Origin: a virus
Taxonomy: Duplodnaviria > Heunggongvirae > Uroviricota > Caudoviricetes
DNA length: 7,541 nt
Reading direction: 5' to 3' (one strand)
IMG/VR virus record: IMGVR_UViG_2645727593_000017
Location: 1 to 7,541 of that record
Positions within the stretch are counted from its first letter, which is position 1. Every line of letters starts with the position of its first letter. The notes beneath the pieces are model-generated. The model was not told the DNA's origin, did no database searches, and saw nothing but the letters and a program-made list of their open reading frames with translations. Of this stretch, positions 1 to 6,841 are shown one piece after another. Position numbers and translations under genes: made by a program.

Positions 1-1119
1 TCAAATAACCAACTTAACCCATTCCTGACCTCGAGTATCGTTATAGCGATCGGTGGTTGCCTGGACTTTATGTCCTAGTAATGTTTTTGTATCGATACCC
101 TGTGCACGGTACAGCCGTTCTGATAGAGAGCGTTGTTCATGAAATGTTGGCGGAGTTTTTCCTGCTGGTGGAATTATCCCAGCCAGATCCCGTGCTTTGG
201 CAAAGTAGCCGCTCAGGTTGTCTTTACTCATCGGCTTCGGTTGTTTCTGGTGCCGACTATGGATTAGATATGGACTTAATATTCTGTCTCGGCACCCATC
301 AATAACTTCTTTTAACGTTATCCCAATGGCATCACAGCGTAGTGTAAGCGGTAATGCCAGACGCATTCCGGTTTTTCCCTGGGTGATATGCAAGTGTTCG
401 TTCCACACATCTGAAAAACGCATGTGGCAAATGTCATCACGGCGCTGACCAGTAACAATCGCAAGAAGCATTGCGTTACGGATAAAGTGTTTTTCAGGCG
501 TTGTATTGTAAATTTTTTGCCAGTCTTCCATGGTGAGCCTGGCTCTGGTTACTTTAGGGATCGGTTTACGGGTAGCCTCCGGAGGATTCCATCCAGGAGG
601 AACTTCCCCTGCATGCTGTGCTTCTTTATAAATATCAACCCATAATCCACGATTTACTCTCGCTGTGCTGACCATGTCTTTATCCAGCCACTCATCCAGT
701 ATTAATGCAAAGTCTCTTACTTCCAGTTCTTTCAATGGGTGGTTTCCCAGACGGGAAACCAGGTATGCAGCCATTCGAGTTTTTTCTTTGTGAGTTGTAG
801 CTGCAATATCTCCATTTTTCAGTCGCGCGTCCTGTATTTTCAGATATCGATCAACCCATGCCTTTAATCTGATGCCCCGACGTTTTGTTGCTGACGGACT
901 TTCATCAATTTTGCGCATGAAATATTCAGCTTCTGCTGCAGCTATTCGCTGATTGGCTGTGGAAGCGATTTTTTCTGCTTTGCCTTTGTCTGTTCCGAGA
1001 CCGTGAAATTTTCCAGTCACAGGGTTTTTATACTGGTAGTAAACCCTGCCAGTTCTGCGATCAAACTTTTCGTAAAGACCGGTTACGTCAGTGCTGTTTT
1101 TTCGTGGCCTCGGTGACAT
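1..1119 (-). CDS. int: Phage tyrosine integrase (lambda Int family), complete, 372 aa
   Basis: Complete ORF with ATG at 1119-1117 and TGA at 3-1. AAGGAG Shine-Dalgarno lies 10 nt upstream of the start. The N-terminal arm-binding region resembles lambda Int (YYQYKNPVTGKFHGLGTDK). The C-terminus carries tyrosine-recombinase catalytic motifs (HEQRSLSERLY ... LLGHK ... TTDRYNDTRG, with the catalytic Tyr). The start overlaps the 3' end of xis as in lambda. Confidence 0.93.
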   Translation of the reverse strand: MSPRPRKNSTDVTGLYEKFDRRTGRVYYQYKNPVTGKFHGLGTDKGKAEKIASTANQRIAAAEAEYFMRKIDESPSATKRRGIRLKAWVDRYLKIQDARLKNGDIAATTHKEKTRMAAYLVSRLGNHPLKELEVRDFALILDEWLDKDMVSTARVNRGLWVDIYKEAQHAGEVPPGWNPPEATRKPIPKVTRARLTMEDWQKIYNTTPEKHFIRNAMLLAIVTGQRRDDICHMRFSDVWNEHLHITQGKTGMRLALPLTLRCDAIGITLKEVIDGCRDRILSPYLIHSRHQKQPKPMSKDNLSGYFAKARDLAGIIPPAGKTPPTFHEQRSLSERLYRAQGIDTKTLLGHKVQATTDRYNDTRGQEWVKLVI

Positions 1120-1339
1120 GAGTTAAAATCTCCTTCAGTGCATCATCATCGCCAGTATGAATTTCCGGCGCAATTCCCGTTTCACCAGGTCCAACAAATA
1201 CTGCCCGGCGATCTATCAGCCAACGCCCACGAATTTTTTGTGGTCTTGGAACGATGTATCCTAGTTTTCCGTATTTCACCAGGGTAGTGTTTGTTATTGG
1301 GAGACTGAACCGTTTTGGTTTCCACTCGTCGAGCGTCAT
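1088..1339 (-). CDS. xis: Excisionase (Xis/AlpA-like winged-helix DNA-binding protein), about 83 aa
   Basis: The product MTLDEWKPKRFSLPITNTTLVKYGKLGYIVPRPQKIRGRWLIDRRAVFV resembles the lambda Xis N-terminus (LTLQEW ... winged helix). The 3' end overlaps the int start by 32 nt, the usual xis-int arrangement. The start is ambiguous: in-frame ATGs at 1339, 1348 and 1387. Confidence 0.75.
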   Translation of the reverse strand: MTLDEWKPKRFSLPITNTTLVKYGKLGYIVPRPQKIRGRWLIDRRAVFVGPGETGIAPEIHTGDDDALKEILTHVTEATKKQH

Positions 1340-2951
1340 CAAGTGCATTATGGCGCTCACCTTCGAATGGGATAGCCGTTCTGGCATCGAAGTCTATGGC
1401 TTTCCCCAGCTCAACGATTGTGCGTACATCGCGATCGTTGTAGTAACGCCACGGGCAGGGGATCCCCTGCCGTTCGTATGAACGGCGCAAAATCGTGTTG
1501 TCGAAGTTGGCTCCATTTCCCCAGACCTGAACAAAAAATTCACCGGAGTTTTCGTCGATAAATTCCCGCAATTGCAGTAGTGCATCATCTAACGGGATTT
1601 CATCGGTCATAATGGCAGACTGCGCTTCACGTGATTGCTTCAGCCACCATTTAATGGTGTCACGATCAATGACTCCGCCAGCAGTTTCCAGATCGATAGT
1701 CTTACTAAATTCCGGTCCCATATCTCCGGTTTGCGGATCGAAAAATATTGCACCTATTGAGATAATCGGGGCATCAGGATTTTTTCCCATGGTTTCAAGG
1801 TCGATCATTAGATGGTCACACGTCCTGCTGGTGGATGTGATAACGCGATGACCGTTCACCGTAATTAAGGGATCTGCCGTCTCGCCAGTTTCACTATCGC
1901 TGGCGTGATCCTGAGCGCTGCCAGCATTCTCCTTGTGTGGATGTTCAGCGCCTTCCATTTTCTCCGAATCGTCTTCCTGAACTTCAACCTGGTTCTTGTC
2001 ATCGAATGTTTCCTGGTATGTTGCGTCGCCCATCACCGCACCACAATCAGGGCAGTTGCCACCGCCGGTCTGACCGCAGGCGGTGCAGACTTTTTCCACT
2101 TCCTGTTGCGCCACTGGTTCAGGCTGTTTCGTTTCTGGCTCGTTTTGTAACGCATTTGGGCTGTTTTGTTCCGCTTTCTGGTCGTTCTGTTCCGTTTCTT
2201 GCTGGTTCTGGTTCACAGAATCGCGGGTTTCAATCCCCTTCACCCATTTCGGATCATTCGGGTCGCTAATCCCTGCAACAAATTCACCACGTGATGCGGC
2301 GAGCAACTGATTGGCGTCAGGCTGGCTGATATTGGCTGCCTGCATAATTTTGTTTACTTCGTCAGCGGTAACTTTTACCGGTTCTGGCTGTGCGGTCGTG
2401 TCAGATGCACCAGTATTTTGTTGTGAACCTGAGTATGTACTGTTTTTGCGGGCGAAATATTCTTCTTTCGTGATTTCAGTAGCCCCGGCAGCCAGCGCCT
2501 TATCCAGACCAGAAAGTTTGTTTGCGCGACCGTATTTTTCGCCATCCTTGTCGGTGAAGAGGAAGTAGAACGGCCCCTCACGCTCTACAGATGGTTCGAC
2601 TTCCACTTTGCATTCGGTTTTTTCGTTGTCCGGAATTGCCGTTTCCACTGCATCAGTTTCTGGTACTGGCGACGAGAGAGTATCAGTTGCGCTCTGATTT
2701 GTTCCTTCATCTTCAAACACGCCCTTTGTAGTCAGGTATTCAGTAATGTATTTGTTCAGTGCCACAGGATCTTTGTGAATGTCGATCGGACGTTCACGGA
2801 CAAGGCCAAAAATAGTCTGGCGGTCGTAGCGAAGGGCATCAGGCTGTTTGCGCATCGATGCCGAGATACGCTTCCAGTCTTCGCGGTCGTTGTCGATAAC
2901 TTCATTTTTTGCCCAGCGATGGATGCTGCCGTCAATGTTTCCGGCATCCAC
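1182..2951 (-). CDS. Large acidic protein with C4 zinc ribbon and C-terminal DEDDh (DnaQ-like) 3'-5' exonuclease domain; probably the downstream part of an ~850-codon frame interrupted by TGA at 2961-2963
   Basis: 589-codon ORF. Exo I motif MIDLETMG at nt 1788-1808, Exo II WGNGANFDNTIL around nt 1500-1517, Exo III HNALDDA (H-x-A-x-x-D-A) at nt 1332-1352. CTACGQTGGGNCPDC (C-x2-C-x7-C-x2-C) zinc ribbon at nt 2043-2087. Q/E-rich acidic linker upstream of the ribbon. The ORF begins with GTG directly after an in-frame TGA, with no Shine-Dalgarno and no ATG until codon 33. Confidence 0.7.
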   Translation of the reverse strand: MDAGNIDGSIHRWAKNEVIDNDREDWKRISASMRKQPDALRYDRQTIFGLVRERPIDIHKDPVALNKYITEYLTTKGVFEDEGTNQSATDTLSSPVPETDAVETAIPDNEKTECKVEVEPSVEREGPFYFLFTDKDGEKYGRANKLSGLDKALAAGATEITKEEYFARKNSTYSGSQQNTGASDTTAQPEPVKVTADEVNKIMQAANISQPDANQLLAASRGEFVAGISDPNDPKWVKGIETRDSVNQNQQETEQNDQKAEQNSPNALQNEPETKQPEPVAQQEVEKVCTACGQTGGGNCPDCGAVMGDATYQETFDDKNQVEVQEDDSEKMEGAEHPHKENAGSAQDHASDSETGETADPLITVNGHRVITSTSRTCDHLMIDLETMGKNPDAPIISIGAIFFDPQTGDMGPEFSKTIDLETAGGVIDRDTIKWWLKQSREAQSAIMTDEIPLDDALLQLREFIDENSGEFFVQVWGNGANFDNTILRRSYERQGIPCPWRYYNDRDVRTIVELGKAIDFDARTAIPFEGERHNALDDARRVETKTVQSPNNKHYPGEIRKTRIHRSKTTKNSWALADRSPGSICWTW

Positions 2952-2960
2952 ATCACCAGG

Positions 2961-3737
2961 TCAGAGAGCGTAGGCCAGTTCGTCATCCAGTGTTTTCCAT
3001 GTCTGCTTATATTCGCGACGAATGACTGCAGTGACAGGGGGGATTTTTTCTGCTGAGTTTTCAGTGTGCTGTCGGTGGACTCTGGCGCGGGCGAGATCAA
3101 CAACAGACGTGTATTTTCCGGTTTCCTTGCGTTCACCTTCGCGACGTTTTTTCCAGATGCGCATCTCTGCCTGAATTTCGGGCCATTTGGCACCAGGCTT
3201 ACATTTATGCTTAACCCACCCGATGGCATGCAGCTTAAGCTCCGGATACATGGCGTTAACTTCTGGCATTTTCATCAACGCTTCAACGATATGTCCGTCG
3301 AATGTTGCCATGTCTTCCTGCAACAATTCCTGCGCGCTAATCACCATATCAACGGTGATGTTTTCACATGTGTCGAACTTAACCATGACAGCGTTCTGTA
3401 CTTCAAGGGACAGTTTGTCAAAATTGACGTTCATCGGTTCGGATTCTGGTTCGACCGGAATAAAGGAAGCGGATTCCTCATCCCAGCGGTTTTCCTGCAT
3501 ATATTCGGTATCCCAGGAGTCGATAGCAGGGCGGGGCATGCCGGGTTTATCCTCGCAGATAAGAAATTTATAAGCGCAGTCCTGAGCAGCCGGATATTGC
3601 TCCAGGAATTGCCAGGTAAATTTGGCACGGGCGCGGCGTTCGTCACCGGCTTCAATGGCAGTGGCTACAGCAACTGCACCTTCTTCCTTTATTGCCTGTT
3701 CGTCCGGAATGGCGGCGCAAATAAAGACTTTACTCAT
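2961..3737 (-). CDS. Hypothetical acidic protein, 258 aa; likely the N-terminal part of the interrupted large nuclease gene
   Basis: ATG at 3737 with GAGG 10 nt upstream. Same strand and same reading frame as ORF 1182-2951, separated from it only by TGA-CCT-GGT-GAT. The composition looks protein-like, whereas the antisense ORF 3066-3755 is F/G/L-rich, typical of a mirror frame. No recognisable motifs. Confidence 0.6.
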   Translation of the reverse strand: MSKVFICAAIPDEQAIKEEGAVAVATAIEAGDERRARAKFTWQFLEQYPAAQDCAYKFLICEDKPGMPRPAIDSWDTEYMQENRWDEESASFIPVEPESEPMNVNFDKLSLEVQNAVMVKFDTCENITVDMVISAQELLQEDMATFDGHIVEALMKMPEVNAMYPELKLHAIGWVKHKCKPGAKWPEIQAEMRIWKKRREGERKETGKYTSVVDLARARVHRQHTENSAEKIPPVTAVIRREYKQTWKTLDDELAYAL

Positions 3738-3860: not shown

Positions 3861-4082
3861 TCACCATGACTCTGCTTTTACAGGTAAACCATCACGACCA
3901 AGGAAGACTTTAATCATGGTTTCCTTAATACAGTGTTGTGTGGAAAAATCACGAATATAGAGCCGTTGTTTTTTAATGTTGTTTACCGAAGCAATATATG
4001 TTCTTCCTTTATGAATAACATAATCACCGGGAGTCACGCACTGACGAGGAATCTCATCAGTTCCGAAGTGATGAGCAATCAT
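3861..4082 (-). CDS. kilR: KilR-like small killing / cell-division inhibitor protein, 73 aa
   Basis: The [76 protein letters not shown] matches in length and sequence my recollection of Rac KilR. The start was chosen at the ATG at 4082, which has GGAG 6 nt upstream; the track ORF begins 4 codons earlier. Position left of the immunity region fits Rac gene order. Confidence 0.6.
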
Positions 4083-5507: not shown

Positions 5508-5984
5508 TTAAGTTCCTGTCTTGGTGATGTTCTGGCTTTTCCGTTTTGATGCTTGATTTTTCAGATAGTTAGCTACCTTCATTTCCATTGCGGCAATGTA
5601 GGCGCGAACGTCATGATCAACCCAACTAGGCTCCGTAGCATTTCCAGATAAGATGAAAGCCACAATTGCTCTTTTTTCATCAGAGGCGGCTTGATAAAGG
5701 CTGTTTATGTCTAAAAGTTCACTTTTTGTATCTGAAGTGGATGGGGTTGGTATGGGGTATTCGTTAAGCCCCCAATGCTCTGGACCAACCACATCAGAAA
5801 AGAAACGCCATAGTTCTGGAAGTTTGTCTTTACTTATCGAACCTTTCTTAATCCAGTCATGGATTGATGGTGGTTGGACTTTGAAATGACGTGCGATTTC
5901 CGCCTTTGATTTGACGGCTCCTGATGCAATTTTTTTGTTAATGGCCTGCTCTATCGCTCGGCCTAAATCTTTACCACTAAGCAT
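5508..5984 (-). CDS. racR: Prophage immunity repressor, HTH_XRE type, 158 aa, no LexA-like peptidase domain (RacR-like)
   Basis: ATG at 5984 with AGGAGA upstream. HTH segment KSKAEIARHFKVQPPSIHDWIKKG. Divergent from a cro-like gene and flanked by operator/promoter inverted repeats. Length and neighbourhood (KilR-like to the left, YdaS/YdaT-like to the right) match Rac. The symbol is assigned by architecture, not by sequence recall. Confidence 0.65.
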   Translation of the reverse strand: MLSGKDLGRAIEQAINKKIASGAVKSKAEIARHFKVQPPSIHDWIKKGSISKDKLPELWRFFSDVVGPEHWGLNEYPIPTPSTSDTKSELLDINSLYQAASDEKRAIVAFILSGNATEPSWVDHDVRAYIAAMEMKVANYLKNQASKRKSQNITKTGT

Positions 5985-6108: not shown

Positions 6109-6432
6109 ATGAAAAAAGATAACTATTCATTCAAACGAGCTTGTGCTGTTGTCGGTGGGCAATCAGCAATGGCTAGGCTTTTAGGTGTATCTCCTCCAAG
6201 CGTAAATCAATGGATCAAAGGTGTACGTCAGTTACCTGCTGAGAGATGTCCTGCGATTGAACGAGCAACAAAAGGTGGTGTCCTGTGTGAAGAACTTCGT
6301 CCTGATGTTGATTGGACATACTTACGACGCTCGTCATGTTATTCGCAGAATATGTCGATGAAGCAACCAAATGACGAAAACGATCATACCCGAAGCATCA
6401 AGAGGCAAATGATTCATGAAAATCAAACATGA
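6109..6432 (+). CDS. ydaS: Cro/YdaS-like HTH regulator, 107 aa
   Basis: ATG at 6109 with GGAG 8 nt upstream; the track ORF begins at an upstream GTG at 6088. HTH segment QSAMARLLGVSPPSVNQWIKGVRQLP. Divergent from the repressor across the operator region. Its 3' end overlaps the next gene by 17 nt. Confidence 0.7.
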   Translation: MKKDNYSFKRACAVVGGQSAMARLLGVSPPSVNQWIKGVRQLPAERCPAIERATKGGVLCEELRPDVDWTYLRRSSCYSQNMSMKQPNDENDHTRSIKRQMIHENQT

Positions 6433-6841
6433 GCACATCCGCATGGCGATGAATGCCTGGGCATACCCTGATGGTGAGAAAGTTCCTGCAGCTGAAATAG
6501 CCCGGACTTATTTCGAACTGGGGATGACGTTCCCTGAACTGTACGACGACAGCCATCCGGAAGCCCTGGCCCGTAATACCCAGAAAATTTTCCGTTGGCT
6601 GGATAAAGACACCCCTGATGCTGTTGAAAAAATGCAGGCTCTGTTACCGGCGATCGAAAAGGCGATGCCGCCTTTGCTGGTGGCCCGTATGCGCAGCCAC
6701 AGTTCTGAATATTACCGTGAGATCGTCGAACGGAGGGATCGGCTGGTGAAGGATGTCGATGATTTTGTTGCGTCAGCGGTTGTTTTGTATGACCAGATGA
6801 ATCGCGGCGGCCCGGCAGGGAATGCTGTGGTGATGCACTAA
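6416..6841 (+). CDS. ydaT: YdaT-like protein (CII-like or toxic regulator family), 141 aa
   Basis: ATG at 6416 with AGAGG upstream, overlapping the ydaS-like stop. Length and position match the Rac racR-ydaS-ydaT arrangement. The antisense ORF 6423-6881 is P/S/R-rich and judged spurious. Confidence 0.65.
   Translation: MKIKHEHIRMAMNAWAYPDGEKVPAAEIARTYFELGMTFPELYDDSHPEALARNTQKIFRWLDKDTPDAVEKMQALLPAIEKAMPPLLVARMRSHSSEYYREIVERRDRLVKDVDDFVASAVVLYDQMNRGGPAGNAVVMH

Follow-up and report, generated by a model that had tools for sequence, protein, structure and literature searches.

An apparent overlap of exonuclease and excisionase genes in a Rac-like prophage of Escherichia coli as the probable outcome of a recent, strain-private deletion

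Described counterparts and the overlap in the window

Overprinted genes, in which two same-strand reading frames share a stretch of DNA, are known from phages, and the overlaps of lambda Rz/Rz1 and of phiX174 are conserved across relatives with both products functional. Deletions between short direct repeats, arising through slippage or microhomology, are also well described, with E. coli lacI as the classic case. Two further systems have components in common with the locus considered here. The first is the lambda-type xis-int module, recognized by Exc together with Arm-DNA-bind_1/Phage_integrase, in which xis is followed by int with a short conserved overlap. The second is the group of Rv2179c-like DEDDh exonucleases (PF16473), carrying the Exo I-III residues including H-x4-D, for which the nearest solved chain is 8kel_A ('Exodeoxyribonuclease').

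We analysed a stretch of 7541 nt (hereafter the window), which is the exact reverse complement, with 0 mismatches, of positions 2..7542 of contig JHTJ01000018.1 (L004) in the E. coli draft assembly GCA_001267335.1. The host element is a Rac-like lambdoid prophage beside potC/potD, genes that were found downstream of the integrase in both L004 and L005, and all relevant genes of the window are located on the minus strand (Table 1). The locus resembles overprinted phage genes in that two same-strand ORFs share approximately 160 nt in different frames. Unlike the lambda Rz/Rz1 and phiX174 overlaps, however, the arrangement occurs in a single lineage only, one of the two frames is an out-of-frame read-through tail, and the homologues do not overlap. 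With lacI-type deletions the locus shares two near-identical direct repeats (11/12 positions, 7 of them an exact run) 153 nt apart, of which one copy is left; mechanistically it displays nothing unusual, the one curiosity being where the repeat falls, namely over the Exo III motif in one gene and over the N-terminal codons of xis in the other. From these sequence comparisons we consider it highly probable (roughly 0.92) that the overlap is the product of a recent, strain-private 153 bp microhomology deletion in a decaying prophage, and not an evolved instance of dual coding.

The exonuclease codons for HNALDDA (CAT AAT GCA CTT GAT GAC GCT) are the reverse complement of 1352..1332. An ATG at 1348..1346 starts one base into the AAT codon, spanning AAT and GCA (exonuclease codons 535/536), and the frame that it opens reads ATG CAC TTG ATG ACG CTC GAC GAG TGG, or MHLMTLDEW, whilst the exonuclease frame remains open until a TGA at 1184..1182. 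The xis ORF has its 3' end at 1088 and a maximal extent from 1387 (Pfam Exc). Its overlap with the exonuclease amounts to 206 nt when counted from the most distant upstream ATG (1387), and to 167 or 158 nt when ATG 1348 or ATG 1339, respectively, is taken as the start, so that the original prediction of at least 156 nt was about right. Three-frame translation also confirmed its suggestion that the K/R/T-rich tail of the exonuclease is xis read out of frame, which extends for 48 codons past the junction. The further proposal that the same nucleotides serve both the Exo III motif and the start codon of xis is true of this allele only: the native xis start, ATG AGC GAA CAG TAC CTG ATA (MSEQYLI), has been deleted from the window, and ATG 1348 is exonuclease DNA. 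At its other end, the last 32 nt of xis overlap int, and this second overlap is kept in relatives.

Table 1. Positions of features in the window and of the exonuclease-xis boundary in intact relatives
Feature	Coordinates	Strand	Basis or remark
Lambda-type tyrosine integrase, 372 aa	1..1119	-	Pfam Arm-DNA-bind_1 and Phage_integrase
xis, native part (codon 10, AC of GAC, Asp10, to stop)	1088..1329	-	Identical to intact xis of L001, L005 and L012 past the junction
Deletion junction, sole remaining copy of the 12 nt repeat TGATGACGCTCG	1330..1341	-	Comparison with the sister allele (L012)
Chimeric xis ORF, 86 aa (MHLM + TLDEW...)	1088..1348	-	Translation; first 4 codons are exonuclease DNA in the +1 frame
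Non-native exonuclease tail, 48 codons and stop (RVETKTVQSPNNKHYPGEIRKTRIHRSKTTKNSWALADRSPGSICWTW*)	1182..1328	-	Three-frame translation; xis read out of frame
DEDDh 3'-5' exonuclease domain (Rv2179c-like, PF16473)	1326..1814	-	Pfam profile positions 2-168 of 177
In-frame TGA, W259*	2961..2963	-	TGG at the same place in relatives
N-terminal exonuclease fragment, 258 aa (YdfE_N/YdfE_C region)	2961..3737	-	Frame arithmetic, translation, Pfam YdfE_N and YdfE_C matches
Exonuclease ORF, 589 aa	2951..1182	-	Residues 380-542 match Rv2179c-like, 2.7e-62
vB_EcoS-640R1	Exonuclease end 2613; xis start 2675		Non-overlapping
mEp460_ev081	Exonuclease end 4235; xis start 4308		Non-overlapping
Stx2_14040	Exonuclease end 4231; xis start 4296		Non-overlapping
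E. coli CAU16175 (closest complete genome)	Exonuclease 5424-7895; xis 7957-8226		Non-overlapping

A 153 nt gap between two direct repeats

Comparison of exonuclease C-termini and xis N-termini across relatives revealed one basic arrangement: the exonuclease frame closes 20 codons past HNALDDAR, and a spacer of 61-72 nt lies between it and a separate, non-overlapping xis. The spacer was 61 nt long and preceded an 89 aa xis (MSEQYLITLDEW...) in vB_EcoS-640R1, E. coli CAU16175 and a sister assembly of the source strain; the xis-int module of the window, at the same potC site, is also found in 640R1 and CAU16175. Annotated relatives have an exonuclease gene of 813-823 aa that ends shortly past the HNALDDA motif, and at the position of the window's tail the intact relatives read YQAKYVS(A/V)IWQKLIPSQADF*. 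A promoter and terminator scan of the intact exonuclease-xis junction found nothing. The original prediction had allowed for two alternatives, namely true dual coding over a long stretch that constrains both genes, or an exonuclease that terminates earlier in relatives with the tail as a local artefact. The latter was borne out in every intact relative examined, which is the very outcome that the prediction had named as its refutation; the former is at odds with an allele that proved private and recent and with an overlap that is not conserved. The cause is not a frameshift but a 153 nt deletion of in-frame length.

Alignment of the window to three relatives displayed a single clean gap of exactly 153 nt, between ...CACTTGATG and ACGCTCGACGAG (flanks also given as ...GCACTTGATG and ACGCTCGACGAGTGG). 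The sister assembly, a draft that belongs to the same series of accessions as the source (GCA_001266355.1; contig JHTF01000008.1, L012; 99,785 nt = 99,632 + 153), was collinear with the source contig over 8.5 kb and differed from it by 3 substitutions and the 153 nt indel. It has an intact exonuclease end (...HNALDDARYQAKYVSAIWQKLIPSQADF*), the 61 nt spacer and the 89 aa xis. In this allele the sequence TGATGACGCTCG in the exonuclease gene and TGATAACGCTCG in xis form a repeat pair 153 nt apart, identical at 11 of 12 positions and sharing the 7 exact bases ACGCTCG, a microhomology that corresponds to window positions 1336..1330. One copy is situated just past the Exo III motif and the other at xis codons 6-10. 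The window retains one copy only, TGATGACGCTCG at 1341..1330 with the exonuclease-type G, and the 153 nt between the copies are absent. Two parental repeat copies, one derived copy and collinear, near-identical flanks are what characterizes a microhomology deletion, and past the junction neither xis nor int has any substitution relative to the CAU16175 prophage (0 in both).

The missing 153 nt can be accounted for as 64 + 61 + 28. The 64 nt are made up of codon position 3 of Arg541, the final 20 codons of the exonuclease and its stop; the 61 nt are the spacer with its hairpin and the xis Shine-Dalgarno sequence; and the 28 nt comprise the first 7 xis codons along with the xis copy of ACGCTCG. 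The full-length Pfam match of the intact form, the native xis N-terminus in thousands of genomes and the repeat structure all suggest that the event was a deletion in this strain rather than an insertion elsewhere. General knowledge of such events points to replication slippage or another microhomology-mediated deletion, by which a 153 bp segment would have been lost between the two copies of the 12 nt imperfect direct repeat in the exonuclease gene and xis. As 153 is divisible by three and xis is +1 relative to the exonuclease, the exonuclease frame now runs into xis out of frame and continues for 48 codons until a chance stop, whilst the ATG across exonuclease codons 535/536 shares its frame with what is left of xis by accident. 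We therefore take the semblance of dual coding to be a by-product of the lesion, owing to the frame relation left by the deletion and to this accidental ATG. The similarity of the chimeric N-terminus H-L-M-T-L to the native Y-L-I-T-L would likewise follow from the repeat spanning the site.

When window positions 1000..3000 were compared to phage records by megablast, the similarity of most relatives was lost at approximately 1330, at the motif. This loss, and the exchangeable nature of the module of which the spacer and xis form part, would also fit a junction that is a mosaic recombination boundary, with the exonuclease gene linked there to another int-xis module. Such an origin is exceedingly improbable given that 640R1, CAU16175 and the sister assembly, which have the same int-xis module, keep the exonuclease 3' end and the spacer and are collinear on both sides, and that the internal loss of 153 nt between direct repeats is all that sets the window apart from them.

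Distribution of the junction and tests of dual coding

We screened 5426 complete E. coli genomes for the junction allele. A 201 nt query across the junction was covered to at least 80 % in 1542 of these, and the best 40 of the 1542 covering genomes all have the intact form, with the query matching in two segments over 354 nt. No match to a junction-specific 48-mer was obtained in any of the 5426 genomes, and the exact junction 30-mer GCACTTGATGACGCTCGACGAGTGGAAACC was absent from species-representative genomes, IMG/VR and JGI metagenome contigs. The chimeric 86 aa protein is identical to the RefSeq 'excisionase' WP_077816273.1 and was present only on the source contig and on one Logan contig. 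The latter, separately assembled from run SRR19671042, opens with AGGTGAGCGCCATAATGCACTTGATGACGCTCGACGAGTGG and hence with the same junction. A wider spread was considered on account of an 83 aa 'excisionase' (MTLDEW...) on 40 contigs, and was rejected: the three contigs that were read (L009-L011) begin inside an intact xis, with ATA called as the start, and the 83 aa MTLDEW entries are most readily read as contig-end artefacts.

The junction is supported by two short-read draft assemblies, the source and SRR19671042, and the second of these might possibly be a re-sequencing of the same isolate. It could be argued that the 153 nt gap was introduced by assembly or sequencing and that the real genome is intact, as the source is a short-read draft and the exonuclease gene is multi-copy in E. 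coli, occurring in up to 6 places per genome, where contigs often break. The recurrence of the same junction in a separately assembled contig from another run accession nevertheless makes an assembler artefact unlikely. The flanking repeat, moreover, is only 12 nt long with one mismatch, much shorter than assembler k-mers, such that collapse is unlikely, and the sister strain from the same project was assembled as the intact form. Taken together, we regard an artefact as very unlikely.

A selected dual-coding overlap, with a functional exonuclease C-terminus and a functional Xis N-terminus that constrain one another, might be proposed on the grounds that both ORFs are open, that a moderate Shine-Dalgarno-like site is found ahead of ATG 1348, and that RefSeq calls the 86 aa product an excisionase. 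The exonuclease frame is indeed open through xis for 54 codons, which was equalled by only 2.8 % of 5000 synonymous resamplings of xis; it is longer than in 97 % of them. Diverged xis homologues were collected by tblastn of phage records and a scan of species-representative genomes, and comprised xisE, two Citrobacter loci and one 403 nt contig. In Citrobacter xis (73 % identity) the corresponding frame is interrupted by stops at codons 1, 38, 47, 67 and 69, and in xisE (46 % identity) at codons 7, 15, 25 and 28. A conserved hidden ORF in the alternative frame of xis was thereby ruled out, the frame being closed in these diverged homologues, and for the same reason its openness in the window appears to be an unusual, lineage-specific accident that allowed the long tail. 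The overlap was not found in homologous loci among the intact relatives, the 5426 complete E. coli genomes or the three contig collections. Dual coding is further contradicted by the sister strain, 3 SNPs apart, which has the non-overlapping form, by a tail that stands in place of a conserved part of the exonuclease domain, and by an exonuclease gene that was already interrupted by a nonsense codon. We judge selected dual coding to be extremely improbable and return to the deletion as the preferred explanation of the overlap.

Residual coding capacity of the exonuclease and xis

The exonuclease gene is also interrupted further upstream. The ORF at 3737..2961 is in the same frame as that at 2951..1182, the two being parted by the TGA at 2963..2961, which is TGG in relatives whose gene encodes 823 aa. 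The W259* codon is common to the window and the otherwise intact sister allele, which makes it most likely that the nonsense mutation arose before the deletion. The original prediction omitted this in-frame TGA, and its 589 aa 'exonuclease' is only the part downstream of it. Barring reinitiation of translation at GTG 2951, where the Shine-Dalgarno sequence is poor (-2.8 kcal/mol), the 589 aa ORF is the downstream part of a pseudogene. The protein matches PF16473 strongly, as do Rv2179c-like DEDDh exonucleases, and keeps all the catalytic motifs including HNALDD. The match covers profile positions 2-168 of 177 in the window (210 bits; cut-off 27), as against 2-177 of 177 in the intact 640R1 protein (227 bits). 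In contrast to the described exonucleases, the prophage protein is an 823 aa multi-domain mosaic in relatives, and in the window it is split and lacks the last 9 profile positions, leaving the domain incomplete in the segment C-terminal to H-x4-D. The upstream nonsense codon, the lost terminal helix and the foreign tail suggest that the exonuclease is probably non-functional.

The chimeric 86 aa Xis scored 23.0 bits against Pfam Exc (PF07825) and the intact protein 23.2 bits, both borderline at a cut-off of 23, over profile positions 3-54. This borderline score, along with a position upstream of a tyrosine integrase that it overlaps by 32 nt, places the gene with the lambda-type excisionases, and the order of xis then int with a short conserved overlap is that of the lambda-type module. 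A search of PDB sequences with Xis returned insignificant matches only (E >= 0.09). Unlike the lambda-type module, the window has neither the ribosome-binding site native to xis nor xis codons 1-7, and expression would need an accidental start inside the exonuclease ORF. A Shine-Dalgarno-like AAGGTG is present 9 nt upstream of ATG 1348 (-4.4 kcal/mol, compared to -6.1 for the native xis site), yet approximately 23 % of all ATGs on the minus strand score as well. Xis may or may not be produced from this accidental ATG. It is conceivable, though rather doubtful, that the deletion accidentally rebuilt a working xis, with an 86 aa Xis made from ATG 1348, its MHLMTLDEW mimicking the native YLITLDEW, and the prophage still excising. 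If so, the locus would offer a natural snapshot of a same-strand overlapping gene pair arising in one mutational step.

Overall, the locus represents a prophage in decay that has undergone a microhomology deletion of an ordinary kind. Its biological weight is small, the lesion being private and the exonuclease gene already interrupted by a nonsense codon. It does call for caution in annotation: gene callers and RefSeq list the chimeric 86 aa product as a normal excisionase and the 589 aa ORF as an exonuclease, and long same-strand overlaps should be compared to close relatives before any claim of dual coding. As a naturally occurring isogenic pair, the intact sister and the strain with the deletion might serve to probe how much of the Xis N-terminus and of the hairpin upstream of it excision requires.

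Regarding the identity of the exonuclease, a search of PDB sequences with the intact domain matched 8kel_A and 8ken_B only, in alignments that end before the Exo III motif. Phage records often label the protein 'exodeoxyribonuclease VIII', and a RecE family match is found only in the N-terminal region of some alleles.

Gene overlaps and the exonuclease frame through xis

The overlap between xis and int was kept in all intact relatives bearing the same module, whereas the exonuclease/xis overlap was not conserved. In E. coli CAU16175 (L005, 7893-8130), as in the other intact relatives, the exonuclease's own TAA was the sole stop in its reading frame, which past this codon remained open through a 61-nt spacer and 57 xis codons. 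Readthrough of one stop would give a long exonuclease extension in these relatives. As the frame was closed in Citrobacter, its openness over spacer and xis is probably due to chance.

An 83-aa 'excisionase' starting MTLDEW is also recorded for 40 contigs in public databases. Three of these contigs (L009-L011) were read, and each began within an intact xis, with ATA called as the start codon; on this basis the 83-aa product was rejected as a contig-end annotation artefact.

Features of the window and its relatives
Feature	Location	Strand	Remark
xis/int overlap	window 1088-1119		32 nt
Mosaic exonuclease gene	window 1182-3737; phage 640R1 (L001) 172-2613		
In-frame TGA (W259*)	window 2961-2963	minus	TGG in relatives
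Hairpin GTCGCCAGTTG...CAACTGGCG	L005 about 7908-7941; sister draft assembly (L012) about 6290-6325		exonuclease-xis spacer; deleted in window
KilR	Rac-type early region of window	minus	
RacR repressor	Rac-type early region of window	minus	
YdaS-like/YdaT-like pair	Rac-type early region of window	plus	divergent

A hairpin in the spacer of intact relatives

The hairpin lay directly upstream of the xis ribosome-binding site in L005 and L012, and the 68-nt spacer bearing it had a minimum free energy of -19 kcal/mol. The stem carried a compensatory A:T to G:C change in mEp460, and Citrobacter had a shorter stem (GCCAG/CTGGC) at the matching location. As no T-run follows it, the hairpin is not a classical terminator; it is a candidate processing or antitermination-dependent element that may control xis.

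Mosaicism in the exonuclease gene and early region

The exonuclease gene is a mosaic, with different N-terminal regions in the two alleles: YdfE_N/YdfE_C in the window and the Pfam Exonuc_VIII (RecE N-terminal) region in 640R1. The name 'exodeoxyribonuclease VIII' is given to the protein as a whole in many phage records, although the catalytic domain belongs to the DEDDh type (Rv2179c-like), with 8kel_A the nearest solved chain. Between the N-terminal and catalytic regions were a CxxC...CxxC motif (CTACGQTGGGNCPDCG) and a low-complexity stretch rich in Q/E/N. The nonsense codon W259*, also present in the sister assembly (GCA_001266355.1), breaks the 823-aa exonuclease gene in two, leaving a YdfE-like fragment of 258 aa and the 589-aa ORF.

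The remainder of the window (3861-4082, 5508-5984 and 6109-6841) was a Rac-type early region. At the place of kilR, the closest complete genomes have dicB and DUF1482, which is a further mosaic swap.
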